IMG/VR virus record: IMGVR_UViG_3300027808_000022
DNA length: 64,000 bases
Reading direction: 5' to 3' (one strand)
DNA from: an uncultured virus (IMG/VR IMGVR_UViG_3300027808_000022)
Taxonomy: Duplodnaviria; Heunggongvirae; Uroviricota; Caudoviricetes
Numbering within the stretch: position 1 is the first letter of the stretch; every line of letters begins with the position of its first letter. The position numbers and the translations under genes were made by a program. Shown here in pieces: positions 45,919-63,260 of the stretch. The notes beneath the pieces were generated by a model. It was not told where the DNA came from. It ran no database searches and saw only the letters and a list, made by a program, of their open reading frames with translations.

Positions 45919-46304
45919 GGGGATGACACAGATTCGATTGGCGTAGTTAGTCAATGGGTGCATGTATGAGCTGAAATAACTCATTAAAAACTGGTTCAAA
46001 AAATTAAACGGAAACGTTTTAGACAAAATGGCGACTATCGGATTAATCCGTGAAAACGCTTCTGTAGTAGCCTAATCGCTATTACAAAACAGGTCGGGAG
46101 ACATACAACCTAGGAACAGAAGTCTTTTAAAGGTGTAGTTTCTATCTTAAAAGAAACAAGTGGAGGATTAGTTCTCAGTAAACCAAACCACTATAAAATA
46201 AGGGAATTGTGAATTTCGGAACATTAGAAAATGTTGACCTAAACATGTAGTACCTCTTGGGTAAGACGAGCAAGACCGGGGGGCAGTACCTCGCATCTCC
46301 ACCA
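45919..46304 (+). ncRNA. ssrA: tmRNA (one-piece)
   Basis: 5' GGGGATG pairs with 3' CATCTCC-ACCA and has G3.U70; T-arm CGGGG-GGCAGTA-CCTCG; internal tag frame 46010-46075 GNVLDKMATIGLIRENASVVA*; terminator directly after. Confidence 0.92.
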
Positions 46305-48640: not shown

Positions 48641-48707
48641 TAGTAAAAATATATTGTTTAGTAAATAAATACAAAAAAACCTGATATAAATCAGGTCTTT
48701 TTAAATT

Positions 48708-48894: not shown

Positions 48895-48971
48895 TGGTGG
48901 ACCCTGTAGGGCTTGAACCTACGACCTACTGATTATGAGTCAGCCGCTCTGACCAACTGAGCTAAGGGTCC
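48895..48971 (-). tRNA. tRNA-Ile2(CAU, lysidine-type), less likely Met
   Basis: GGACCCTTAGCTCAG...CTCATAA...ACCA; body resembles bacterial Ile2. Confidence 0.8.
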
Positions 48972-49000
48972 ATTGTTATACAAAGATAATAAAAAAATTC

Positions 49001-49423
49001 TTAATCCCACCAATGTTCAATTTTTTGTTCAAGAATTTTAAATAATAAACGTTTAGCTTTATTGTGCTTATCTGTTACCATTTTAAGAGCTTCAGATGAC
49101 CGTTTATCTAACTCATAAAACCCATCATAATATGATTCATTTTGTATTTTATCAATTAACCTAACACAAGTCATCATTAACTCAGCATCACGTTCAGAAC
49201 TTTCATGAGAACCATATTTAACAAGATGTTTGGCTTGTTTTTCTAACTTGAATTTTAATACCTGAAAAACATAATGGTGGTCCCAATCCCTATCTTTCCA
49301 TATTATCCAAAACCATTTATATAGGTTCTGAACTCCATACTTAATGTATTTGTGTTGGTTGGGTAGTTCCCATCTTACCCATCTGTAAAGTTTCCAATAC
49401 CATTCGTTATATTCTGTGTTCAT
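49001..49423 (-). CDS. Hypothetical Trp-rich phage protein
   Basis: 140-aa ORF, WKDRDWD...WWD. Confidence 0.7.
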   Translation of the reverse strand: MNTEYNEWYWKLYRWVRWELPNQHKYIKYGVQNLYKWFWIIWKDRDWDHHYVFQVLKFKLEKQAKHLVKYGSHESSERDAELMMTCVRLIDKIQNESYYDGFYELDKRSSEALKMVTDKHNKAKRLLFKILEQKIEHWWD

Positions 49424-49437
49424 AGTTATGATTTTAG

Positions 49438-49511
49438 TAGACGAGAAGGGACTTGAACCCCCAACCTTGATGATATAAGCATCCTGCTCTAACCTGTTGA
49501 GCTACCCGTCC
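49438..49511 (-). tRNA. tRNA-Ile(UAU)
   Basis: Anticodon arm GATG-CTTATAT-CATC; cloverleaf with TTCAAGT T-loop. Confidence 0.85.
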
Positions 49512-49516
49512 AAATA

Positions 49517-49702
49517 TTAGTTGAAATGAGTACAATCCCCTTGAGTATTATCCCACGGGCATATGTACATTTCTGGTTGGGTATGTATGTAAACTCCATC
49601 AACACCAAAGTTGTCATTTTCACCATACAACCCAAGTGACTGACTTAATTCTGTCAATTCGGTTAAAAAATCTTCCTGCGTCATTTGAGTCTTGGGGTCC
49701 AT
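49517..49702 (-). CDS. Hypothetical protein
   Basis: 61-aa ORF between tRNAs. Confidence 0.45.
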   Translation of the reverse strand: MDPKTQMTQEDFLTELTELSQSLGLYGENDNFGVDGVYIHTQPEMYICPWDNTQGDCTHFN

Positions 49703-49715
49703 GATTATTGTGTTT

Positions 49716-49792
49716 TGGAGCCTGAAGACGGACTCGAACCGCCAACCCCCTGATTACAAGTCAGGTGCTCTACCAATTAAAGCTATTCAGGC
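49716..49792 (-). tRNA. tRNA-Thr(UGU)
   Basis: CCTGA-CTTGTAA-TCAGG; encoded CCA. Confidence 0.92.
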
Positions 49793-49811
49793 ATTTATGT
49801 TTTAATATATA

Positions 49812-50099
49812 TTACTTTCCTTGTTTTTTGTAAACATAAGTGATGGTATCACCAATGTTGTACTTCCTCAAAGAAGTAAACTCACTGCTGTCTGACATGA
49901 AATACTTGTACTTCCTGTCAAGTTCAATTGTGCTGTGAGGTGGCAATTGAACCATTGAATCAATAACGAACTTTTCAACTACATCACCTTTTTCAATCAA
50001 AGGTTTCTGTTTACAAGCTCCTAACATAGTGGCAAGAATAATAGATAAAATAATCCATAAGGAAAAATAAAGTCGGGGGTCTTTTAATATGTTTTTCAT
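49812..50099 (-). CDS. Putative membrane/lipoprotein
   Basis: Hydrophobic N-terminus ending LGAC; start after TACCTTTG promoter. Confidence 0.55.
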   Translation of the reverse strand: MKNILKDPRLYFSLWIILSIILATMLGACKQKPLIEKGDVVEKFVIDSMVQLPPHSTIELDRKYKYFMSDSSEFTSLRKYNIGDTITYVYKKQGK

Positions 50100-50100
50100 G

Positions 50101-50652
50101 TTACAAAGGTAATATATTTTTTTCAAAGTTTTTTACATAATTGTCAACTATGTGTTGAATTTCATTTTGATATCTACTATGAACATACTGATGATGTGTT
50201 GGACATAATGGTACCAAGTTTTTTGGTTCGTTATTTTGGTGATTATTGTCATAATGATGGATAGTCACAATTTTATTTTCACTACAAATAATACATTCTT
50301 TTTTGTGATAATTAAAACCAATTCTTCTATAACCGTTACGTTCTTGACTATCACCAAAATTTCCCCAATTTGGGTTATTTTCACCACTTCTAAAAAAGGT
50401 GTTTGAACAAGAATAAGAACATGTTGTTCTTTCTTCTTTCCCTCCAACTTTTGTTTCAAATTGAATATCACAAACAGGACACAATTTAATAACTGATTGG
50501 TATTTTATTTCTCGACTTCTTAAATGCGAAACGTCAATTTTATTTTCAACAATGAAATTTTCAAATTTTTTTCGAGTTTTTCCATTGTCAAAACCATAGA
50601 GTTTTTTAATAGCTTCAGCCCTTGTCTTAGAATTTTTAATTATTTCTACCAT
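50101..50652 (-). CDS. HNH endonuclease inside tRNA array
   Basis: CPVC..TCSYSC, GENNPNW, CIICS...IHH.D.N..NN...NL..LCPTHH. Confidence 0.85.
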   Translation of the reverse strand: MVEIIKNSKTRAEAIKKLYGFDNGKTRKKFENFIVENKIDVSHLRSREIKYQSVIKLCPVCDIQFETKVGGKEERTTCSYSCSNTFFRSGENNPNWGNFGDSQERNGYRRIGFNYHKKECIICSENKIVTIHHYDNNHQNNEPKNLVPLCPTHHQYVHSRYQNEIQHIVDNYVKNFEKNILPL

Positions 50653-50714
50653 ATATAATAAATATATTGATTGTCGTTAAAATTAGATTTGGTCAAATAT
50701 TTTTTTAACGATTG

Positions 50715-50790
50715 TAGCGTAGACTGGATTCGAACCAGCGTGCCTCTGCTCCCAAAGCAGATGAGATAAACCTGACTCCTCTACTACGCT
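50715..50790 (-). tRNA. tRNA-Pro(UGG)
   Basis: TCTGC-TTTGGGA-GCAGA. Confidence 0.85.
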
Positions 50791-50799
50791 ATTTGTTTG

Positions 50800-50869
50800 T
50801 GGACACTGTGGGAATCGAACCCATACGTTCTGATTGCAAATCAAACGGTCTGCCGTTGACATCAGGCCC
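50800..50869 (-). tRNA. tRNA-Ala(UGC), atypical
   Basis: TTTGA-TTTGCAA-TCAGA; G3.U70 present; irregular acceptor and D arms. Confidence 0.7.
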
Positions 50870-50880
50870 TTTTATTTTTG

Positions 50881-50952
50881 CGGTCCCACCGGGAATCGAA
50901 CCCGGCACTTTGCCGTGACAGGGCAATATTATAGCCGATTAACTACAGGACC
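50881..50952 (-). tRNA. tRNA-Asp(GUC)
   Basis: TTGCC-CTGTCAC-GGCAA; G73. Confidence 0.9.
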
Positions 50953-51020
50953 GTAAGTTAGTAAACCCGGGCCCAACAAGCCGTGATAAACACGGAAGGG
51001 CCCTTTTTAAGATTTACTTT

Positions 51021-51096
51021 TGGAGCGAGAGACCAGGTTCGAACTGGCGACCCTCAGTTTGGTAAACTGATGCTCTACCGACTGAGCTACTCTCGC
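51021..51096 (-). tRNA. tRNA-Gly(ACC)
   Basis: TCAGT-TTACCAA-ACTGA; GCG acceptor, U73, CCA. Confidence 0.88.
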
Positions 51097-51101
51097 TTTT
51101 G

Positions 51102-51173
51102 AGCGAGTGGGGAGAATCGAACTCCCATATCCAGCTTGGAAGGCTGGAGTAATAGCCTTTATACTACACTCGC
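51102..51173 (-). tRNA. tRNA-Gly(UCC)
   Basis: CCAGC-CTTCCAA-GCTGG; U73. Confidence 0.9.
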
Positions 51174-51180
51174 TTTTTTC

Positions 51181-51262
51181 GAGTCAGAGTAGTCACGGCC
51201 ACCTCTTATCCTTCTGACTCTTGATGTAAAAGTGGCCAATGTGGCACGACCCAAGTTACATC
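51181..51262 (-). ncRNA. Candidate two-hairpin (kissing-loop) RNA
   Basis: Stems GATGTAA/TTACATC and GAGTCAGA/TCTGACTC with complementary loops GGCCAC/GTGGCC. Confidence 0.5.
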
Positions 51263-51265
51263 CAT

Positions 51266-51339
51266 TGGTTGCGGACCCGAGACTCGAACTCGGAACTATG
51301 GGTTATGAGCCCATTATGTTACCATTACACCAACCCGCG
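51266..51339 (-). tRNA. Initiator tRNA-fMet(CAU)
   Basis: C1:A72 mismatch, GGG/CCC anticodon stem, CTCATAA loop, CCA. Confidence 0.9.
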
Positions 51340-51348
51340 ATTTATTTG

Positions 51349-51420
51349 TACTCGGTAGGGGAGTCGAACCCCTCTTTCCAGGATGAAAACCTGGCATCCT
51401 AACCGATAGATGAACCGAGC
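51349..51420 (-). tRNA. tRNA-Glu(UUC)
   Basis: CCAGG-TTTTCAT-CCTGG. Confidence 0.9.
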
Positions 51421-51433
51421 AATTATTTTTTTC

Positions 51434-51455
51434 TTACCAATACGTCAAAGAACTT
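51434..51455 (-). promoter_or_regulatory. boxA-like element before tRNA array A
   Basis: AAGTTCTTTGACGTATTGGTAA, identical to 58371-58392. Confidence 0.65.
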
Positions 51456-51486
51456 TTTTGTTCTGTTGTCTTATTCAACAACAATA

Positions 51487-51518
51487 CAAAGTTAATACAT
51501 TTTTTTAATACTACCAAA
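51487..51518 (-). promoter_or_regulatory. Bacteroidota sigmaA-type promoter between attenuator A and array A
   Basis: TTTG-N20-TAACTTTG. Confidence 0.6.
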
Positions 51519-51525
51519 CAAACAC

Positions 51526-51557
51526 AAAAAAAACCCATCCTTTCGAGATGGGTTTTT
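51526..51557 (-). terminator. Attenuator terminator A
   Basis: AAAAACCCATCT-CGAAA-GGATGGGTTTTTTTT; 5' arm complementary to GAGATGGG in leader A. Confidence 0.85.
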
Positions 51558-51578
51558 GTAAGATATTTTTTTACAATA

Positions 51579-51647
51579 TTATCCCATCTCCACTTTGGAA
51601 GTATCAGCCTCTGTTGCTGGTGTGCCGAATATGAATATGGTTTTCAT
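51579..51647 (-). CDS. Leader peptide A (22 aa) MKTIFIFGTPATEADTSKVEMG
   Basis: ATG..TAA read directly; A-rich start; ends in anti-terminator sequence. Confidence 0.75.
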   Translation of the reverse strand: MKTIFIFGTPATEADTSKVEMG

Positions 51648-51704
51648 TGAATGTATTATTATTTGATTTCTTATTAAATATAATAAACTTTTAAAAAGTG
51701 TCAA

Positions 51705-52979
51705 TTAAAACGCCAAAGAATTTACATAACTTACCGATTTTTGTACAGACTTTTCAATTGTTTTAATAATTGAGTCCAAATTTAACTCGGCAACATTACC
51801 AATTGAGATTCTAAACCATCCTTTGTTACTCTTTGAACCAAAATATTCAAACGGAACAATTCCCAACCCACAGGTATTAATTAAGAACGAAATATACTCT
51901 TCTGTGGATGAAAATGAATGAACATAACCCAAGTAAACCGAAATATAAATTCCACCATCAGGTTTTTGGTAATCAACATTATGACCTTTGTTTTTCAATT
52001 CTTCCAACTTGTCACAGATTTTATCTGATATAAATTCATACGATTTTGTTACATAGTTTATGTGAGAAATGTAATCTTCATAATCTACTCTGATGTACGC
52101 ATCCAATGCTCGTTGTTCAGGTTTTGGTGCCCATGCTCCAATGTGAGACAAAACTTCGGTTATCTTTCCAATAATATCTTTTGGACCAAACAACCAACCA
52201 ACACGAACACCAGTTGCGTTTAATGATTTTGAAATACCATCAGCACAAATCAAATAATCTCTGATTTCAGGACATAAAGTTAATGGGTGGATAAACAAAC
52301 CTTCTTTGGTGATGTCAGAATAAATCTGGTCAAAGAACAAATACAATGGTCTTGAACCTACTTGTGTTGACCTGATTTTATTTTCTCTCACAATCAACTC
52401 ACAAATACCTTTCAGAACTTCGGGGTCAATTACACGACCTGTTGGATTTTGTGGCGAACAAATGCAAACCAATGATGTTTTATCACTTATTCTACCGTCA
52501 ACATCTTCAACGGTTGGAAAAAATGAATTTTCAGGTGTACATTCAATTTCTTCTTTTTGTGCATTATGTAAAAAACAATAGTGGTTATTATTCCAAGATG
52601 GTACAGGATAAATCACCTCTTCATTCGGATTTACCGTGGCTTTATAAACCGTATAAATCAATGGACGAACTCCACCACCAATTAAGATTTCTTCAGGTGA
52701 ATAATCAACATTGAACTGATGTTTAATGTGTTTGGAAACAGATTCCCTTAATTCAAGTTCTCCTTGTGAGTTTGGATAGTTGGTTAAATCCCACTCGTAA
52801 GCATCTTGAATGTGTTTTCTTAATTTTGAGGGTATTGGCCATAGTTTGGAATTAAAGTCACCTATGGTTAGGTTAGATACTGGTTTTGTTTTAGCAATTT
52901 CTTTGATTTGTTGTGAGATTTTAATAATTTCAGAGCCAACAATATTGTTCCCTACATTTGATAATTTTTCCATTATCAA
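51705..52979 (-). CDS. Class I/II PLP-dependent aminotransferase (aspartate aminotransferase-like)
   Basis: CSPQNPTG, FDQIY, DGISKSLNATGVRVGW, WFRIS. Confidence 0.9.
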   Translation of the reverse strand: MIMEKLSNVGNNIVGSEIIKISQQIKEIAKTKPVSNLTIGDFNSKLWPIPSKLRKHIQDAYEWDLTNYPNSQGELELRESVSKHIKHQFNVDYSPEEILIGGGVRPLIYTVYKATVNPNEEVIYPVPSWNNNHYCFLHNAQKEEIECTPENSFFPTVEDVDGRISDKTSLVCICSPQNPTGRVIDPEVLKGICELIVRENKIRSTQVGSRPLYLFFDQIYSDITKEGLFIHPLTLCPEIRDYLICADGISKSLNATGVRVGWLFGPKDIIGKITEVLSHIGAWAPKPEQRALDAYIRVDYEDYISHINYVTKSYEFISDKICDKLEELKNKGHNVDYQKPDGGIYISVYLGYVHSFSSTEEYISFLINTCGLGIVPFEYFGSKSNKGWFRISIGNVAELNLDSIIKTIEKSVQKSVSYVNSLAF

Positions 52980-53001
52980 AAGTATAAGACACTAATAAGA
53001 A

Positions 53002-54561
53002 TTATTCAAATATTTTACTATAAAATTTGTCAAAGTTTGGTCCTTTAACCAAACCACTTTTTCCTTGTCTGGCACTAATACCTGCCATATTTGACGCCGA
53101 AAAGAAACTACTATATTGACCAGGACCACTTCTTCTACCTATTTGAGTTAAAAATTCGTTCTTATTACCGACCTTACCTTCAGGAATGTTTTTAAGATAT
53201 TCCATAAATGCTTTGGTTAACGCACCTTTACCTGTGAAGGTGTATTTTGACCTGGTATAAGTCTTAGACTTTGTTGGTGGATACCTATCTAACAAGAATT
53301 CATCTTCACTAAGTTCTTTGTATATTGTATAATAAAATTCTTTATACAAATTATCTAATAAATTACTAGTTCTTCTTAAAACGTGTTCAGGGTCACTCTG
53401 TCTATCCTCATCCAATATTAAAGTTTTAGTATAGGTTGATTTTTTAACAATATTTTGGTCCGTATTATATGGTATTATCTCAGCGTCAAATCTAACGATG
53501 TGTTTTCCTATCATTACTTGAGTATTATAAACCTTAAAATAACAATCAATAACGCCATCTTCACTATAAGAAGTTTTTCCTTCTTTATCAATTTCTACAA
53601 CCTCCCAAGGCGTACTAATTCTAATACTCGTATTATCTCTATCACTATCTTCAACGCTTGGTCTTCCAATATAAAACTTTAATTTCCCACCTTTGAATTG
53701 GTATATCTCATTGTGGCTTGTAGTAACTTTTGGTATTATTTTATAAATAACATCCAAGACATCTTCTTTAGGGAATGATGTTTTATAGTCATTAACCATT
53801 GAATTATACGCATCTTTTGGCATATGAGCCAATACTGATTCTTTTTCTCTTGATGTCAATCTTTCGTCAGTTGAATCGTACCAAATTGAATCTGAATCAA
53901 ATTTTCCATTCTTTGGTGCGTGAATGGCCATTTTGTAAAATTTATTATCCCTGTCAACATTTTTTAATATTAAATAATACAAGTTTCCATTTGAACTATA
54001 TTGATTGAAATACGATGGATTACCTTTCATTGTTGTACACCATCTTGTACCTGAACCATAATAACAAGATGCGGTAAATGATTTTGGTTTTATAACCAAC
54101 AACGTATCGTTTTCAAAAATTTTATCTATTTCTTTCTTGGCTAATTTTTCTGTCTGTTTGGTCTCAACGTCAGTTTTAATCTTTTGAGCTTCATTGAAAA
54201 AATCTTGTATATTTGTACTGTATTGTCTAAACTCAGGATATTTGAATTTTGATTTGTGTTTTTCAAATGTATCTAAAGAAGCAACAATCTTGTCAATTTC
54301 ACTCCTCATTCTAAATATTAGAGTTCTTGCTCTGTCTTTGTCTAAAGGCTCAGCTTCACCTGAATAATAATTTACGGTATAATAATAATCCAAAATATCA
54401 TTAAGATATTTGTAATTAGTCTCTTTTATAAAAGGTTCACCAATTAAAAAATCATACGCAGACGCATCATCCATGTAAGTGGATATCATCTTTCTTTCAC
54501 CATCAATACTTTTTTGGAATTTCTTAAATGAGTCTTCCTTACGACCTTCAAATAAAATCAT
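53002..54561 (-). CDS. Hypothetical protein with ASCYYGSGTRWCT domain (paralogue 2)
   Basis: 519 aa; N-terminus ILFEGRKED resembles FLQEGKKED of paralogue 1. Confidence 0.75.
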   Translation of the reverse strand: MILFEGRKEDSFKKFQKSIDGERKMISTYMDDASAYDFLIGEPFIKETNYKYLNDILDYYYTVNYYSGEAEPLDKDRARTLIFRMRSEIDKIVASLDTFEKHKSKFKYPEFRQYSTNIQDFFNEAQKIKTDVETKQTEKLAKKEIDKIFENDTLLVIKPKSFTASCYYGSGTRWCTTMKGNPSYFNQYSSNGNLYYLILKNVDRDNKFYKMAIHAPKNGKFDSDSIWYDSTDERLTSREKESVLAHMPKDAYNSMVNDYKTSFPKEDVLDVIYKIIPKVTTSHNEIYQFKGGKLKFYIGRPSVEDSDRDNTSIRISTPWEVVEIDKEGKTSYSEDGVIDCYFKVYNTQVMIGKHIVRFDAEIIPYNTDQNIVKKSTYTKTLILDEDRQSDPEHVLRRTSNLLDNLYKEFYYTIYKELSEDEFLLDRYPPTKSKTYTRSKYTFTGKGALTKAFMEYLKNIPEGKVGNKNEFLTQIGRRSGPGQYSSFFSASNMAGISARQGKSGLVKGPNFDKFYSKIFE

Positions 54562-54590
54562 ATATATAAATACTCACAATTATGTATTTG

Positions 54591-54664
54591 TAGCGAGGGA
54601 GGGAATTGAACCCCCCACCTCAGGGTTATGAATCCTGCGCTCTAACCGACTGAGCTACCTCGCC
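54591..54664 (-). tRNA. Elongator tRNA-Met(CAU)
   Basis: GGCGAGGTAGCTCAG...CAGGA-TTCATAA-CCCTG. Confidence 0.85.
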
Positions 54665-54668
54665 ATGA

Positions 54669-55280
54669 TTATTCTATGGTTTCACCATCCAATGTATAAA
54701 TCATACATGAGGATGATTTCCCTGAATTATCCAAACAATCTTCAATTTCTAATGGTTGTCCTTTAAAAAAGACTTGACCGATAAAATCATAATCACCTTC
54801 TGGTGTTCCTATTGAACCTGATGAGTACGTAAAATCTGTCGGAGTTGGTACTGTGTCAGACTCAAGTGAAAATTTAAACATTCCACCTTTGTTTTCATCA
54901 ATACTCAAATAGACATTTGTTGGTCCTTCTTTTTGAGGAAACGCATTATACTCTCTGTACTCATACTTTTCTTCAAAATCTTCAATTGTTTCGTATAAGT
55001 CGGCGGTTTCATCAATACCAAACTCTAATACTTTATTTTCTTCTTCATCAAGAAGTTCAAAGTGCATTGTACCATTGTCAAACGCTTCGGTTTTGTGAAA
55101 GATTTCACCGTCCCAAAAATCAAGGTCCAAAAGTTCATCTAAATCAAAACGGATTTCATGAAGTTCAGAAAAACCTTCCTCTTCCATTTTATCTTTAATA
55201 ATTTGTATTTGTTCGTCAGTTAGAGATTTGCAGACTGCCTCAAAAGACCATCCATAAGTGTTAAGTGTGTATTTAGCCAT
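54669..55280 (-). CDS. Acidic hypothetical protein
   Basis: 203-aa ORF, TATATTTG promoter upstream. Confidence 0.7.
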   Translation of the reverse strand: MAKYTLNTYGWSFEAVCKSLTDEQIQIIKDKMEEEGFSELHEIRFDLDELLDLDFWDGEIFHKTEAFDNGTMHFELLDEEENKVLEFGIDETADLYETIEDFEEKYEYREYNAFPQKEGPTNVYLSIDENKGGMFKFSLESDTVPTPTDFTYSSGSIGTPEGDYDFIGQVFFKGQPLEIEDCLDNSGKSSSCMIYTLDGETIE

Positions 55281-55315
55281 ACGGCAAATATAAATTATAA
55301 ACCGTGATTCGTCAA

Positions 55316-55753
55316 TTATTTTAAGAATCTTAATTTGTATAATGTTGAGTAAATCAATTCTTGAACTCCATCAATTTGATTTTGAATATAAGATTCTTTA
55401 ACCGATGTCCTATTTTTTTCAATATTTTCATCTAATTCTTTAAAATAAGCTATTACTTGTTCTGTTGATTTGTAATCAACTGTTTTAATTGTTTTATAAC
55501 CAGTAATTATTTCGTATTTTCCTTGATAACTTTCAACAATATTATCAACTAACCCATCAATTCCATCATAATATTCTTGTAAAGCTTTATGTTCAGAAAA
55601 TGATGATTGTGATTTTGTCTGCCAATGAAAGATATGTACTTGAGACTGTGAATGTAATAATGTTGCAATCATATCAACCACATCGGCAGTTTCAGTTGCA
55701 GGATTTGATTTTGATGATAAACCATTTAAAAGGTCTCTTTTTGTAATTTCCAT
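55316..55753 (-). CDS. Ferritin/Dps-like four-helix protein
   Basis: HIFHWQT...EHKAL.EYY....D..VESYQG. Confidence 0.7.
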   Translation of the reverse strand: MEITKRDLLNGLSSKSNPATETADVVDMIATLLHSQSQVHIFHWQTKSQSSFSEHKALQEYYDGIDGLVDNIVESYQGKYEIITGYKTIKTVDYKSTEQVIAYFKELDENIEKNRTSVKESYIQNQIDGVQELIYSTLYKLRFLK

Positions 55754-55774
55754 ATCAATAAATATACTGATGTG

Positions 55775-56458
55775 TTAATATGTCTTAAACTTCATTTCTT
55801 TGATAACACAATTTCCAATTTTTTTATGTCCTGATGGTGCCATATGACAAAGTCCATCCCAACAATCCGATTTTGTAATCACACGAGTATTAATCACTTT
55901 TCCACCAACAATTTTTTTTATCAATTCATTCTGAAATTTGGAATACTTAACTCTGTAGTTTGGATTTTCTGGTGTGTTGATGCAAATTAATGGGTCAAAT
56001 CCGGTAATTACAACTGGTTTAACACCTTTGGAATTACAAATGTTTACAATTTTTTGAATGTTCTTTACTGCGCTTTCAATGGTGATTTTGCTGTTATACA
56101 TATCATTGGCACCTCCATAGATAAAACAATAATCTAAACCATTGTGAATAGATTCTTTTGCTCTTTCTAACATCCAACCTGTGGTTTTTCCACCAACAGA
56201 TATGTTATTCATTCTCATTTTTGTTTTGTTGGATAGAGTATATTGCCAACCATTAGGATTTGATGTGTGAGAATCACCAATAAAAAGAACGTATTTTCCT
56301 TTTACATCCACAATTGTGTCTTGTGGTTTAATTTTTACCGTATCAATTTTAACGGTATCTTCAATTTGTTTATTGTTACCCCAAACTTTCCAACTTGTTA
56401 TGAATCCTAAAATTGCTATAACAATGACCAAAATAATTGCTTTTACTAAATTTTTCAT
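55775..56458 (-). CDS. SGNH/GDSL hydrolase with N-terminal membrane anchor
   Basis: FIGDSHT, GG.T, GGAND, DGLCH motifs. Confidence 0.85.
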   Translation of the reverse strand: MKNLVKAIILVIVIAILGFITSWKVWGNNKQIEDTVKIDTVKIKPQDTIVDVKGKYVLFIGDSHTSNPNGWQYTLSNKTKMRMNNISVGGKTTGWMLERAKESIHNGLDYCFIYGGANDMYNSKITIESAVKNIQKIVNICNSKGVKPVVITGFDPLICINTPENPNYRVKYSKFQNELIKKIVGGKVINTRVITKSDCWDGLCHMAPSGHKKIGNCVIKEMKFKTY

Positions 56459-56470
56459 ATTTTTTATTAA

Positions 56471-56562
56471 AAAACACTCTCAAGCTCTCTACTCCCAGTT
56501 CCGAGGAATTGTATCTTACTTAGCCCGTCTCACCACTGTGTGGGTACTTGAGTTTATGTTTT
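56471..56562 (-). ncRNA. Candidate structured RNA
   Basis: Closing stems AAAACA/TGTTTT and CTCAAG/CTTGAG, inner CCCA/TGGG; GC-rich within tRNA transcript. Confidence 0.4.
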
Positions 56563-56564
56563 TG

Positions 56565-56642
56565 TAGTCAGGACAGGATTCGAACCTGTAACACCGGTTT
56601 GACCACTTACGTGGTTGCGTCTATCCATTCCGCCACCTGACT
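56565..56642 (-). ncRNA. tRNA-Leu-like RNA with GNRA tetraloop in place of the anticodon loop
   Basis: Perfect acceptor AGTCAGG/CCTGACT with A73, Leu-type D arm GGCGGAATGGATAGACGC, perfect T arm; anticodon arm ACCAC-GTAA-GTGGT. Confidence 0.7.
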
Positions 56643-56644
56643 AT

Positions 56645-56716
56645 AGTTGTCAGTCTCTCCTGACCGTCACCCCCACTCCGAAGGTATGAGCCTTCATATG
56701 TGATGCTGGGTTAGCT
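56645..56716 (-). ncRNA. Candidate structured RNA
   Basis: Hairpins GAAGG-CTCATA-CCTTC and GTCAG-GAGAGA-CTGAC in a GC-rich spacer. Confidence 0.4.
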
Positions 56717-56719
56717 TTG

Positions 56720-56793
56720 TGGTGTGAACGGGAATCGAACCACGTGGCACGTAGGGTTTCAATCTACTGCTCTACCTGCTGAGCTACCACACC
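56720..56793 (-). tRNA. Second tRNA-Phe(GAA), atypical
   Basis: GTAGA-TTGAAAC-CCTAC with A:C mismatch; bulged T stem. Confidence 0.6.
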
Positions 56794-56820
56794 ATTATTG
56801 TTATACAAAGTTAAAATATA

Positions 56821-57297
56821 TTATCCAATTTTCCAAGCTCCAATTATGTGTTTTTTTATTTTTTTACCGTCCTCAGGGTTACCAATAACAACACCATCTT
56901 TAATGGTAAATGCGTGACCTTTAACAACCACCATGTAAGAACCAACAGGATATTTTTTAATGAACGAAAATGTTGTTGTTGCTCTTAATTTTTTAACACC
57001 TTTAACTACAACATAATACAACATGGTATTGTGTTCCTCAGAAATAATTTGAACGTCTTTACCGTTAATTTGTTTACCATTCTTTGATAACAAATTCATG
57101 CCAGTACCAAGTAAAAAAGTACCTTTACCATTTTTTCTCTTGAAAGTTTCTTTAACAAATTGGTGGGCGGAATCATAGTCCATATCCGCGGCTGATGCAA
57201 TTGCCCTAACAACACAATCGTTTTTTTCAGATTTGGCAATTTTTGATTCAGTATATCCTTTGATTGCGTTTGAAGATGATATAAACCCCTTTTCCAT
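56821..57297 (-). CDS. Hypothetical protein (NDCVVRA...GHAF; possible Cys/His hydrolase fold)
   Basis: Start MEKGF after TATATTTG promoter. Confidence 0.65.
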   Translation of the reverse strand: MEKGFISSSNAIKGYTESKIAKSEKNDCVVRAIASAADMDYDSAHQFVKETFKRKNGKGTFLLGTGMNLLSKNGKQINGKDVQIISEEHNTMLYYVVVKGVKKLRATTTFSFIKKYPVGSYMVVVKGHAFTIKDGVVIGNPEDGKKIKKHIIGAWKIG

Positions 57298-57343
57298 ACT
57301 ACAAATATACAACAGGTATTTGACATTACAAAAAAATATTTTG

Positions 57344-57416
57344 CTCCCCGGATAGGATTTGAACCTATGACCTATCGCTTAACAGGCGAGTGCTCTAACC
57401 ACTGAGCTACCGAGGA
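57344..57416 (-). tRNA. tRNA-Asn(GUU)
   Basis: TCGC-CTGTTAA-GCGA; G73. Confidence 0.9.
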
Positions 57417-57422
57417 ATGTTG

Positions 57423-57504
57423 TACCAAAGGTGGGAGTCGAACCCACACGTCTTTAAGACATTAGTTTCTAAGACTAATGCGGCTACCGTTACGCCACTT
57501 TGGT
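57423..57504 (-). tRNA. tRNA-Leu(UAG)
   Basis: TTAGT-CTTAGAA-ACTAA; long variable arm. Confidence 0.9.
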
Positions 57505-57510
57505 ATTTTG

Positions 57511-57581
57511 CGCAAGTGGAAGGACTCGAACCCTCGCCAAAAGTTTTGGAGACCTTTATGCTACCATTACACCACACTTAC
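57511..57581 (-). tRNA. tRNA-Trp(CCA)
   Basis: AAGGT-CTCCAAA-ACTTT; G73. Confidence 0.88.
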
Positions 57582-57588
57582 GTATTTG

Positions 57589-57663
57589 TGATTCCTGAGG
57601 GACTCGAACCCCCACATCTTCTCGTCCGTAGCGAGATGTTTTATCCAATTAAACTAAGGAACC
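57589..57663 (-). tRNA. tRNA-Arg(ACG)
   Basis: TCTCG-CTACGGA-CGAGA. Confidence 0.88.
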
Positions 57664-57666
57664 ATT

Positions 57667-57741
57667 TGGGGTGACTGATGGGATTCGAACCCACGACACT
57701 CGGCACCACAAGCCGATGCTCTACCACTGAACTACAGTCAC
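57667..57741 (-). tRNA. tRNA-His(GUG)
   Basis: TCGGC-TTGTGGT-GCCGA; C73-CCA; no encoded G-1. Confidence 0.9.
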
Positions 57742-57743
57742 AG

Positions 57744-57817
57744 AGTCCATAGTTGGAATCGAACCAACGAATAACAGTTTTGCAGACTGTCCCTTTGAAC
57801 CGCTCAGGCATATGGAC
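57744..57817 (-). tRNA. tRNA-Cys(GCA)
   Basis: ACAGT-CTGCAAA-ACTGT; U73. Confidence 0.9.
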
Positions 57818-57879
57818 TTATATTCTATAATCCTCCAAATCTAGTAAAAAAAGTGAGTTTTGGAGGATTATAAGTTTTG

Positions 57880-57961
57880 TGCCAGCAGTAGGACTCGAAC
57901 CTACGAACTCAAATGAGAGCGGGTTTACAATCCGCCGCAATTGCCGCTATGCGATACTGGC
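57880..57961 (-). tRNA. tRNA-Tyr(GUA)
   Basis: GCGGA-TTGTAAA-CCCGC; long variable arm. Confidence 0.88.
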
Positions 57962-57968
57962 ATTTTTG

Positions 57969-58041
57969 TCTTTCCTGTTGGATTTGAACCAACGACATCT
58001 TGGATGTAAGCCAAGTGCTCTTCCAACTGAGCTAAGGAAAG
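57969..58041 (-). tRNA. tRNA-Val(UAC)
   Basis: CTTGG-CTTACAT-CCAAG. Confidence 0.88.
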
Positions 58042-58047
58042 ATATTG

Positions 58048-58121
58048 TGACCCCATCGGGACTCGAACCCGAAACCCCCGTGTTAAAAGCACGGTGCTCT
58101 AGCCAATTGAGCTATAAGGTC
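58048..58121 (-). tRNA. tRNA-Lys(UUU)
   Basis: CCGTG-CTTTTAA-CACGG. Confidence 0.9.
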
Positions 58122-58127
58122 ATATTG

Positions 58128-58198
58128 TTACCCCTGAAGGATTCGAACCTCCACTAAGTGGACCAAAACCACTCGTCCTGCCGTTAGACGAAAGGGTA
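58128..58198 (-). tRNA. tRNA-Gln(UUG)
   Basis: AGTGG-TTTTGGT-CCACT; U1-A72. Confidence 0.88.
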
Positions 58199-58203
58199 AT
58201 TTA

Positions 58204-58280
58204 TGGTTGGTGATACAGGACTTGAACCTGTGACCCCTACGGTATCAGCGTAGTGCTCTAACCAACTGAGCTAATCACCA
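58204..58280 (-). tRNA. tRNA-Ile(GAU)
   Basis: CTACG-CTGATAC-CGTAG; CCA. Confidence 0.9.
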
Positions 58281-58289
58281 ATGTATTTG

Positions 58290-58362
58290 TGGGGTAGACA
58301 GGTATCGAACCTGTTCCTTCGGATTTTCAGTCCGGCGCAATGACCTCATCTGCCACTACCCC
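58290..58362 (-). tRNA. tRNA-Phe(GAA)
   Basis: CGGA-CTGAAAA-TCCG. Confidence 0.88.
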
Positions 58363-58370
58363 ATTTTTGG

Positions 58371-58392
58371 TTACCAATACGTCAAAGAACTT
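58371..58392 (-). promoter_or_regulatory. boxA-like element before tRNA array B
   Basis: AAGTTCTTTGACGTATTGGTAA, identical to 51434-51455. Confidence 0.65.
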
Positions 58393-58398
58393 AAAAAC

Positions 58399-58429
58399 AA
58401 AAAAACCCGAACCTTGTGAGTTCGGGTTT
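58399..58429 (-). terminator. Attenuator terminator B
   Basis: AAACCCGAACT-CACAA-GGTTCGGGTTTTTTT; 5' arm complementary to AGTTCGGGT in leader B. Confidence 0.88.
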
Positions 58430-58450
58430 CCTTTTTTAGGCTACTACGTG

Positions 58451-58546
58451 TTAACTTATAACACCCGAACTTGAAAATACGCGAAGATACCAATTCTGAC
58501 AGAATTGAATGACATGTTTCACGATTTGTTTATTTACGAGTTTCAT
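58451..58546 (-). CDS. Leader peptide B (31 aa) MKLVNKQIVKHVIQFCQNWYLRVFSSSGVIS
   Basis: ATG..TAA read directly; TATCTTTG promoter at 58570-58577; anti-terminator in codons 26-28. Confidence 0.85.
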   Translation of the reverse strand: MKLVNKQIVKHVIQFCQNWYLRVFSSSGVIS

Positions 58547-58595
58547 TGTGTTTAGTATTAAATATGGTACAAAGATACAAAAGTTTCTTGATATG

Positions 58596-58856
58596 TTAAA
58601 TATTTTTTTCGTTTTTATTTTTTAATAACCAGTTGGCTCCGACTACAAACCCTTGTTTCCATTTTGTAATATCATCATCACACATCCCTTCACTGTATTG
58701 TTGATATTTGTCATCAGCGCCAATATGAATCATTTGTTGGATTCTTTTTTCTATAAAACCGGGCTTAGTTTCAAACTCAGGTTCTCCCAATTCAACCATA
58801 CCATTTTTCCACTTTTTCCAAGTGTCAAAATCTTTTAAATCTTCAATGTTAATCAT
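58596..58856 (-). CDS. Hypothetical protein
   Basis: 86-aa ORF, GFVVGANW motif. Confidence 0.6.
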   Translation of the reverse strand: MINIEDLKDFDTWKKWKNGMVELGEPEFETKPGFIEKRIQQMIHIGADDKYQQYSEGMCDDDITKWKQGFVVGANWLLKNKNEKNI

Positions 58857-59288: not shown

Positions 59289-59852
59289 TTATAATAAATA
59301 TTCCAATACTTTTTCTTTTATGCCCGTTTGTTTAATGCCTTCTTTATTTTCGGGTGTTAATACAAAGTTCTTCAATCCCCAAGTCTTATCGTGCACATCC
59401 GTTAATGACATATTCAAATCATCAATTGCCACCCAATGTGTGATTACAGGATTCTGACCAATATATTGCGCAATCTCCAAACTACGAGTTTGTTCTAACT
59501 CCGATTTGTTGTGCCATGGGAAATCATCATAATCATCATATAAGATAGAATCGGTAAAGGCAATTGGTTTTTTAATAATACCTTTTGATTCGTAATATTC
59601 TCCCATCTCCTCAACTGTCGCCCAATTTTTCCAATCTGAAGATACAACAATTTCGGCACCTGTTTCCTCTAAGATTTCATTAAGAACTTTAACCGCCTCC
59701 TCATCAAAATTATCAAAACGATACTCAACGGGCATACTTAAAGTACTCATAGACAATTTACGTTTACCCCAACTTTTTTGTTTTTTGAAACGATTACCCC
59801 AATTATCAGACAGACATATCACACCATCGTGGTCCAAAAATATAACTTTCAT
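59289..59852 (-). CDS. HAD-family protein (Swiss-army-knife RNA-repair-like HAD)
   Basis: IFLDHDGV, IVVSSDW, R..EI, WVAIDD. Confidence 0.75.
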   Translation of the reverse strand: MKVIFLDHDGVICLSDNWGNRFKKQKSWGKRKLSMSTLSMPVEYRFDNFDEEAVKVLNEILEETGAEIVVSSDWKNWATVEEMGEYYESKGIIKKPIAFTDSILYDDYDDFPWHNKSELEQTRSLEIAQYIGQNPVITHWVAIDDLNMSLTDVHDKTWGLKNFVLTPENKEGIKQTGIKEKVLEYLL

Positions 59853-63051: not shown

Positions 63052-63186
63052 ATTGAAATGATAAAACTAATTAAACAGAATGATAAAACGGCAATTGTTG
63101 CTACCGTACCAATATTTCTATAATAGGACTCCACTTGTTCTTTGGACCTACCTTGCCATTCGTCTTTATTCCAAAATTTCATTTTG

Positions 63187-63260
63187 TACCCCCGACAGGA
63201 CTCGAACCTGTGACCTACGGTTTAGAAAACCGTTGCTCTATCCAGCTGAGCTACAAGGGC
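63187..63260 (-). tRNA. tRNA-Arg(UCU)
   Basis: ACGGT-TTTCTAA-ACCGT. Confidence 0.9.

Follow-up and report, generated by a model that had tools for sequence, protein, structure and literature searches.

We consider it likely that the 64,000-nucleotide (nt) stretch of DNA analyzed here (the window), which comes from an uncultured virus of the Caudoviricetes (IMG/VR record IMGVR_UViG_3300027808_000022), carries two ribosome-mediated transcription attenuators, each heading one transfer RNA (tRNA) unit of a phage of ~295 kb, and that the split of the genetic code between the two units is incidental. Its sequence is that of the reverse strand of a virus record of 117,610 bp, for which CheckV gives a completeness of 39%. 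Each of its two tRNA arrays, referred to as A and B, is headed by a promoter-like motif, a short open reading frame (ORF), an intrinsic terminator, an antiterminator segment at the end of the ORF and a 22-nt box resembling boxA. As judged from the sequence, this leader layout is that of a classical ribosome-mediated attenuator. The features of the two units are as follows.

58572..58599, minus strand: promoter-like site of leader B (motif match only)
58577-58570, minus strand: TATCTTTG (pattern TAnnTTTG) of the leader-B promoter-like site, followed by ATATTTAAT
58451..58546, minus strand: leader B ORF, 31 codons, MKLVNKQIVKHVIQFCQNWYLRVFSSSGVIS
58463..58471, minus strand: antiterminator segment B, AGTTCGGGT, a copy of the terminator 3' arm, inside codons 26-28
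58399..58433, minus strand: intrinsic terminator B, a 15-pair stem ahead of a T run
58371..58392, minus strand: boxA-like box B, AAGTTCTTTGACGTATTGGTAA, 14 nt past the terminator and 8 nt ahead of tRNA-Phe
57343..58362, minus strand: array B, 12 tRNAs (ARAGORN, Rfam)
51677..51704, minus strand: promoter-like site of leader A (TTGACA-16-TATATT), followed by ATATTTAAT
51579..51647, minus strand: leader A ORF, 22 codons, MKTIFIFGTPATEADTSKVEMG
51583..51590, minus strand: antiterminator segment A, GAGATGGG, a copy of the terminator 3' arm, codons 20-22
51529..51557, minus strand: intrinsic terminator A, a 12-pair stem ahead of a T run
51487..51494, minus strand: TAACTTTG motif, in the context TTAACTTTGTAT, a possible bypass promoter past terminator A and ahead of boxA A
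51434..51455, minus strand: boxA-like box A, the same as box B at 22/22 nt, 13 nt ahead of tRNA-Glu
50714..51420, minus strand: first block of array A, consisting of Glu, an initiator CAU tRNA, Gly-UCC, Gly-ACC, Asp-GUC, a weak Ala-UGC and Pro-UGG (ARAGORN, Rfam)
49437..49792, minus strand: second block of array A, Thr-UGU and Ile-UAU, downstream of two ORFs
48672..48703, minus strand: strong terminator closing unit A, after an ORF of 61 amino acids with a PspC domain

Terminators A and B and the closing terminator at 48703-48672 were the strongest minus-strand terminator matches in 16.5 kb. Antiterminator segments A and B paired with the terminator 5' arm once the 3' arm was omitted from the fold. 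Promoter-like motifs of the TAnnTTTG pattern, which we take to be the -7 element of Bacteroidota promoters, were found 5 to 10 nt ahead of many start codons, and also ahead of Flavobacteriales ribosomal RNA (rRNA) operons. Directly after the promoter-like -7 motif, ATATTTAAT is common to leader cassettes of different families (58560-58568 and 51670-51678 in the window, minus strand; L042 and L043) and may mark the start of the leader transcript.

In the proposed mechanism, transcription would start at the promoter ahead of the 22- or 31-codon leader. Fast reading of the leader would bring the ribosome to its end, where it would cover the antiterminator segment, the terminator would form and the tRNA genes would remain silent. 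A ribosome stalled at a codon whose tRNA is scarce would instead allow the antiterminator to pair with the terminator 5' arm, and the polymerase would continue. It would then copy a boxA identical to the one in host-type rRNA operons and would probably load a Nus complex for the long untranslated array. The sequence anatomy, the match of leaders to arrays and their covariation in relatives are what the analysis shows; from these we infer stalling, the switch, Nus loading and whatever independence the two units have.

The codon content of the leaders was compared with the arrays by using chance estimates drawn from the codon usage of this phage. In leader B, 23 of the 24 sensing codons have their cognate tRNA in array B (P = 2.7e-7 for at least 23/24). 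Codons 2 to 24 specify exclusively the 12 amino acids of that array, all 12 of which are present, and the sensing part contains zero array-A codons; 24 random codons covered all 12 array-B species in 10 of 300,000 trials. Leader A contains four Thr codons, two ATA codons, one Gly, one Pro, two Ala, one Glu and one Asp codon, in addition to Lys, Phe, Phe, Ser, Lys and Val codons. Ten of its 18 sensing codons are cognate to array A, or 12 of 18 if the weak Ala tRNA is counted (P = 0.014 for at least 12/18), and seven of the eight array-A species are sensed. The match extends to isoacceptors. Leader A uses ATA twice, and leader B uses ATC and ATT, CTC and CTT, and CGC, while in phage genes ATA makes up 25% of the Ile codons, CTN 21% of the Leu codons and CGN 26% of the Arg codons. 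A first reading of the window, made from the sequence only, had reported that the Ile isoacceptors are split in the sensing regions just as they are in the arrays, and this holds, with ATA found twice in leader A and ATC and ATT found in the sensing part of leader B. Because each leader is spelled in the codons of its own unit's tRNAs, down to the isoacceptor class, each unit would form a self-limiting supply loop.

Leader-array matching and covariation in relatives

Leaders of the same type were sought in other viral contigs; of 48 loci with a box and a tRNA that were examined by script, 41 received a call of both a leader and a terminator. Permutation tests were performed on 14 families, with one member each and with omission of the seven loci at which no leader was called and of the doubtful calls L037 and L056; the fetched loci end 3 kb past the box or at contig ends. 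The fraction of sensing codons cognate to the leader's own array was 67.1%, versus 36.8 +/- 4.0% after permutation, and 92.4% of the array tRNA species had a codon in their own leader, versus 56.2 +/- 5.2%; for neither value was any of 100,000 permutations as high. A version of the match based on whole ORFs gave 58.5% versus 36.4 +/- 3.2% (0/200,000 permutations). In a set of 15 leaders, 34 codons are of an isoacceptor class that the array contains, versus 9 of the class that it lacks.

The same families were examined for the alternative pairing. An antiterminator was found in all 20 leaders that were folded (14 families), the terminator 5' arm pairing, with the 3' arm omitted, with a segment of 7 to 12 nt in the 3' part of the ORF. 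The terminator and antiterminator stems differ from family to family, and the longest complementary run had a mean of 7.57 nt with the leader's own terminator, versus 5.25 +/- 1.09 nt with the terminators of other families (0/100,000 permutations as high). In full-length minimum-energy folds of most leaders, the antiterminator segment pairs with early ORF bases in short helices, which may or may not represent the upstream segment (region 1) that would sequester the antiterminator in an untranslated leader.

Small ORFs and hairpins could also be ordinary short genes and gene-end terminators that lie before tRNA genes by chance. Short ORFs are indeed common in AT-rich DNA, with 162 ORFs of at least 30 amino acids in 18 kb, and terminator-like sites are mildly enriched (15 found versus 8.3 expected). 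This explanation is nevertheless very improbable, since codon matching and antiterminator complementarity were each equaled in none of 100,000 or more permutations, leader B alone reaches the P value given above, and the identical arrangement recurs in 14 leader families.

Relatives provide direct observations of leaders and arrays changing together, as the sequence-only reading had expected for tRNAs that move between arrays. Reshuffled arrays behind unchanged leaders would have spoken against that reading, and the comparisons gave the opposite. In the close relative G001, an extra Ser-UGA gene lies between His and Arg of array B, and codon 17 of the leader is TCG, versus CAG in the window, which amounts to two base changes in one codon. 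Among leaders homologous to leader B, L060 differs from L005 in that its array lacks Ala-UGC and contains Ser-GCU; all three Ala codons are gone from the L060 leader, which has gained AGT. The 253,879-bp contig L042 contains two tandem arrays, each gated by a leader. Relative to the window, Lys, Val, Leu-UAG, Pro and Ile-UAU are on the opposite side, and the leaders change accordingly. Ser is split in this contig, with the GCU tRNA in array 1 and the UGA tRNA in array 2, and the leaders use AGT/AGC and TCG, respectively.

These comparisons bear on the possibility that the attenuators report general translation capacity (ribosome supply, amino acid starvation or host shut-off) rather than particular tRNAs, the codon match being a feedback of the phage's own tRNA output. 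The sampling of most species by one to four codons per leader, far below the runs present in his or phe leaders, is in agreement with such a sensor, as is the presence of noncognate codons in all leaders except leader B. A sensor of this kind would need neither the matching of isoacceptor classes (34 versus 9) nor the codon changes that track gains and losses of single tRNAs in G001, L060/L005 and L042, and we regard it as improbable.

The boxA-like box and points against attenuation

The 22-nt box AAGTTCTTTGACGTATTGGTAA occurs in exactly two copies in the 117,610-bp record, one per array. A 16-nt core of the box was found at 111 loci of viral contigs, and a tRNA starts within 80 nt downstream in 62 of them, with many different first tRNAs. 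The 22-nt box is equal to boxA as it occurs in rRNA operons of Flavobacteriales. In three genomes of this order (Cryomorphaceae, Crocinitomicaceae and Fluviicola), an exact 17-mer of the box lies 13 to 41 nt before the 23S rRNA gene and a close variant lies 63 to 83 nt before the 16S rRNA gene, and these are the two classical boxA positions. As far as sequence resemblance can tell, the phage signals look like those of Flavobacteriales (Bacteroidota), and the rRNA-type boxA would point to the host group of these uncultured phages.

Passages of PMC6614801 describe leader and spacer boxA sites as binding NusB/E and assembling the rrn antitermination complex (NusA, B, E and G, SuhB and S4), and this complex as also counteracting intrinsic terminators in vitro. 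By analogy with the sites treated in those passages, the boxes of the window probably bind NusB/NusE and make transcription resistant to termination. Since each attenuator precedes its boxA, the stop-or-go decision would fall before the polymerase became termination resistant. A leader-trailer helix was also looked for, and no inverted repeat linking the box regions with the array ends was found.

The 17-mer with the flank ATTTACCG is present in many contigs with no tRNA nearby (L011, L023, L027 and ~15 more viral loci; L119, L146 and L155, which are Bacteroides and relatives), which suggests that the box is also used ahead of protein-coding regions in elements of Bacteroidales. The attenuator terminator and boxA are separated by a tRNA, or by a fragment of one, in several families (L024, 2369 upstream; L035, L060, L064 and L078). 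Thus, the box is not always the first element past the terminator.

Several observations weigh against attenuation by tRNA-sensing leaders as we propose it. Taken by itself, leader A is a modest match, as 6 of its 18 codons are noncognate (K2, F5, F7, S17, K18 and V19), five of the six (K, F, F, K and V) belonging to tRNAs of array B. Array A may also be made without passing the attenuator, because the promoter-like TTAACTTTGTAT is situated past terminator A and ahead of boxA A. The same 12-mer precedes the second tRNA-Phe gene of the window, and any TAnnTTTG motif would be found in this spacer by chance with an estimated frequency of ~6%; the 14-nt gap between terminator B and box B leaves no room for a comparable bypass motif. 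Amino acid starvation would also stall the ribosome, a condition beyond cure by extra tRNA. In G001, leader A has ATT, ATC and AAC codons with no cognate tRNAs in its array, and an extra CAU tRNA is not accompanied by a new ATG in the sensing part. Matches were poor for L049 (10/32), L071 (6/21) and L020 (12/26), partly due to short fetched loci, and no leader was called at 7 of the 48 box-plus-tRNA loci. Finally, rRNA operons were found at only 3 of the 10 bacterial 17-mer loci scanned; the other seven have no rRNA within 2.5 kb, and in these non-rRNA loci the 17-mer is intergenic, ahead of assorted small genes.

tRNA inventory and the division of the code

The tRNA genes were called with ARAGORN and with an Rfam scan of the window at gathering thresholds. 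ARAGORN detected 25 tRNA genes, on the minus strand without exception, to which Rfam added a borderline tRNA at 50869-50800 and a match resembling transfer-messenger RNA (tmRNA) at 45919-46304. Array B is transcribed in the order Phe, Ile-GAU, Gln, Lys, Val, Tyr, Cys, His, Arg-ACG, Trp, Leu-UAG and Asn. The individual genes of array A and those outside the two arrays are the following.

51420-51348, minus strand: tRNA-Glu(UUC), first tRNA of array A
51339-51266, minus strand: initiator-type tRNA(CAU) of array A
50869-50800, minus strand: weak tRNA-Ala(UGC) of array A (Rfam only)
50790-50714, minus strand: tRNA-Pro(UGG) of array A
50652-50101 and 50126-49812, minus strand: two ORFs between the array-A blocks
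49792-49716, minus strand: tRNA-Thr(UGU) of array A
49511-49437, minus strand: tRNA-Ile(UAU) of array A
48895..48971, minus strand: third tRNA(CAU), which has a promoter-like motif to itself, TTATCTTTGTATAACAAT (ARAGORN, motif)
54590..54664, minus strand: stand-alone tRNA-Met(CAU), 4 nt after an ORF of 203 amino acids, without a leader
56564..56642, minus strand: tRNA-like gene in which a GTAA tetraloop caps the anticodon arm in place of the anticodon loop
56719..56793, minus strand: second tRNA-Phe(GAA), which has a promoter-like motif to itself, TTAACTTTGTATAACAAT, immediately upstream (ARAGORN, motif)
63186..63260, minus strand: stand-alone tRNA-Arg(UCU), 3 nt after an ORF, without a leader

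The sequence-only reading had assigned Glu, fMet, Gly, Gly, Asp, Ala, Pro, Thr and Ile(AUA) to array A and Phe, Ile(AUY), Gln, Lys, Val, Tyr, Cys, His, Arg, Trp, Leu and Asn to array B, with no overlap. ARAGORN and Rfam recovered both sets, and no anticodon is common to the two arrays. The initiator features of the array-A CAU tRNA are a C1 opposite A72 and GGG/CCC in the anticodon stem. The Ala-UGC gene is the weak member, as it scored 29.5 bits for a cutoff of 29 in Rfam and was still not called by ARAGORN after the threshold had been lowered; the G3:U70 pair is present, and the acceptor stem has a deletion. The two stand-alone genes reported initially, Met(CAU) and Arg(UCU), were both found, in a list that had missed the second Phe gene, the tRNA-like gene and the third CAU tRNA. 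The second Phe gene and Met-48971 each have the promoter-like motif CTTTGTATAACAAT, the end of which is at the tRNA 5' end. The tRNA-like gene at 56564-56642 has a long variable arm and is also present in the relatives L032 and L050. A hairpin at 57826-57872, with 17-nt arms that are 94% complementary, fills the Tyr-Cys gap of array B and may be a processing site. At the site of the ordinary 74-nt Asn gene of the window, G001 has an 83-nt tRNA-Asn(GUU) with a long variable arm (L233, 2988-3070).

No Ser tRNA was detected in the window by ARAGORN or Rfam, as initially reported. The rest of the 117,610-bp record contains Ser-GCU, Ser-UGA and Leu-UAA on the opposite strand, which brings the coverage to 20/20 amino acids, and the 25 anticodons of the full record suffice as a complete minimal set for decoding, in which each four-codon box has one U34 tRNA. 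The Ser/Leu(UAA) array with a leader of its own that the sequence-only reading had envisaged did not materialize in the full record. The three genes each lie immediately after a protein gene, and there is no small ORF, terminator or box at any of them that could represent a third leader. A third array can be discounted, since a near-identical, 98%-complete record (294,914 bp) contains the same 29 Rfam tRNA matches.

The existence of two disjoint, separately headed tRNA sets raises the possibility that the code is deliberately divided between two sensors, enabling the phage to answer two classes of tRNA loss separately. Each unit does have a promoter, a leader and a terminator to itself, leader B is free of array-A codons in its sensing part, and the Ile isoacceptors are split alike in arrays and leaders. 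The L042 lineage also has two leader-gated arrays, together covering 20 amino acids, and 15 of the 20 shared species are grouped as in the window. This common grouping is, however, not significant (Fisher P = 0.065), and the two sets of the window are mixed in 11 of 12 arrays of other leader families. Disjointness itself is automatic with single-copy tRNA genes. Nearly all tRNA species have one gene, the duplicates (Phe twice and the two Gly genes) each being inside one unit, so that any two clusters would be disjoint. Separation of the two sensors is also incomplete, as tRNAs of array B account for 5 of the 18 sensing codons in leader A, five tRNAs are leaderless (Met-54664, Arg-UCU, both Ser and Leu-UAA), and the second Phe gene and Met-48971 have their own promoter-like motif, similar to the TTAACTTTGTAT motif before boxA A. 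Furthermore, there is no strong minus-strand terminator between unit B and leader A. Combined with the in vitro counteraction of terminators by the rrn complex described in passages of PMC6614801, this suggests that induction of B could spill into A.

For these reasons, a deliberate division appears unlikely, and the partition is mostly a by-product that adds little over leader-array matching. Under the attenuator reading that we favor, the leaders split the code because single-copy tRNA genes happen to lie where they do; the division is neither conserved nor complete. The initial proposal of separately inducible modules retains its support to the extent that each unit has its own promoter-like motif, leader, terminator/antiterminator and boxA and a leader that matches its array. 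As a design that partitions the code, it fares poorly in view of the automatic disjointness, the leaky leader A, the five ungated tRNAs, the possible bypass motif and the mixed arrays elsewhere. The further claim that the tRNAs are not a codon-usage supplement is supported in part, as the complete set of 25 anticodons fits autonomy from the host better, a judgment made without a host comparison.

The grouping of Glu, Asp, Gly, Ala, Thr and Met versus Phe, Ile, Gln, Tyr, Cys, His, Arg, Trp and Asn is common to the window and the L042 lineage, in which the gene order is scrambled. A tentative and rather doubtful extension would be that the phage carries a complete minimal tRNA set as two self-regulating loops, each with a leader that senses the state of its own tRNAs at isoacceptor resolution, that different attacks on the tRNA pool (host shut-off and anticodon nucleases) induce different halves, and that this grouping is functional and not inherited.

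The window has a G+C content of ~32%. Among the products of neighboring genes are an aminotransferase, a GDSL hydrolase and a protein with a PspC domain. Another neighbor, at 59289-59852 (minus strand) and immediately upstream of leader B, encodes a protein of 187 amino acids whose HAD domain is that of the 'Swiss Army Knife' proteins of RNA repair. The tmRNA match at 45919-46304 (plus strand) scored 63.7 bits in Rfam for a cutoff of 47, was not called by ARAGORN and partially overlaps an opposite-strand ORF of 263 amino acids. The DNA is present in freshwater metagenome runs, and metatranscriptome contigs from four runs cover parts of the window, including both leaders; these contigs carry no start, end or strand information and may reflect DNA carry-over. 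A search of a phage collection for a near-identical phage returned only a 94-nt, tRNA-sized match.

Relation to known systems and significance

Leader-peptide attenuators are known from amino acid operons (trp, his, leu and phe, and the multivalent thr and ilvGMEDA) and from the pheST synthetase operon of E. coli. A model of their mechanism is given in PMC1183508. Like the attenuators of amino acid operons, the phage leaders combine a short leader containing regulatory codons, an intrinsic terminator and a mutually exclusive antiterminator that overlaps the end of the leader, and the regulatory codons name what the operon supplies. Unlike them, the phage leaders gate tRNAs and not enzymes, sample up to 12 or 13 species by one to four codons each in place of runs of one codon, and have a codon choice that tracks the isoacceptor class; a boxA follows the terminator, and the whole is phage borne, with Bacteroidota-type signals. 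T-box riboswitches similarly control genes of the translation apparatus by a choice between terminator and antiterminator that depends on tRNA status. They differ by binding uncharged tRNA directly, without translation, whereas the phage leaders have an ORF, and the Rfam scan of the window at gathering thresholds gave no T-box match, only tRNAs and one tmRNA.

The resemblance to rrn boxA lies in the 17-mer found before 23S rRNA genes of Flavobacteriales, with its variant before 16S, and in the position at the head of a long untranslated stable-RNA unit. The phage box differs in that it heads tRNA arrays and sits after an attenuator, with no leader-trailer helix found. Phage tRNA clusters have been interpreted in two ways, as supplements that adjust for codon usage or as substitutes for host tRNAs that are lost during infection or defense. 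The present phage shares with other carriers of such clusters a large genome and a clustered tRNA set. It departs from the supplement and replacement accounts by its complete minimal set of 25 anticodons for 20 amino acids and by two clusters with a sensing leader. A literature search at the abstract level found no description of leader-peptide attenuation or of boxA for phage tRNA genes. Our results appear to place a known control mechanism, leader-peptide attenuation, in a new setting, that of tRNA genes.

Leader-peptide attenuation is a textbook mechanism for amino acid synthesis, and if it also gates tRNA genes, phages would own a built-in sensor of decoding capacity. The window and its relatives provide direct covariation evidence for leader-array matching, and this codon-for-tRNA bookkeeping makes the content of an array predictable from its leader and the leader predictable from the array. 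If true, attenuation of tRNA arrays would bear on the long-standing question of the purpose of tRNA genes in large phages and the time of their use, which would become testable with simple reporters.

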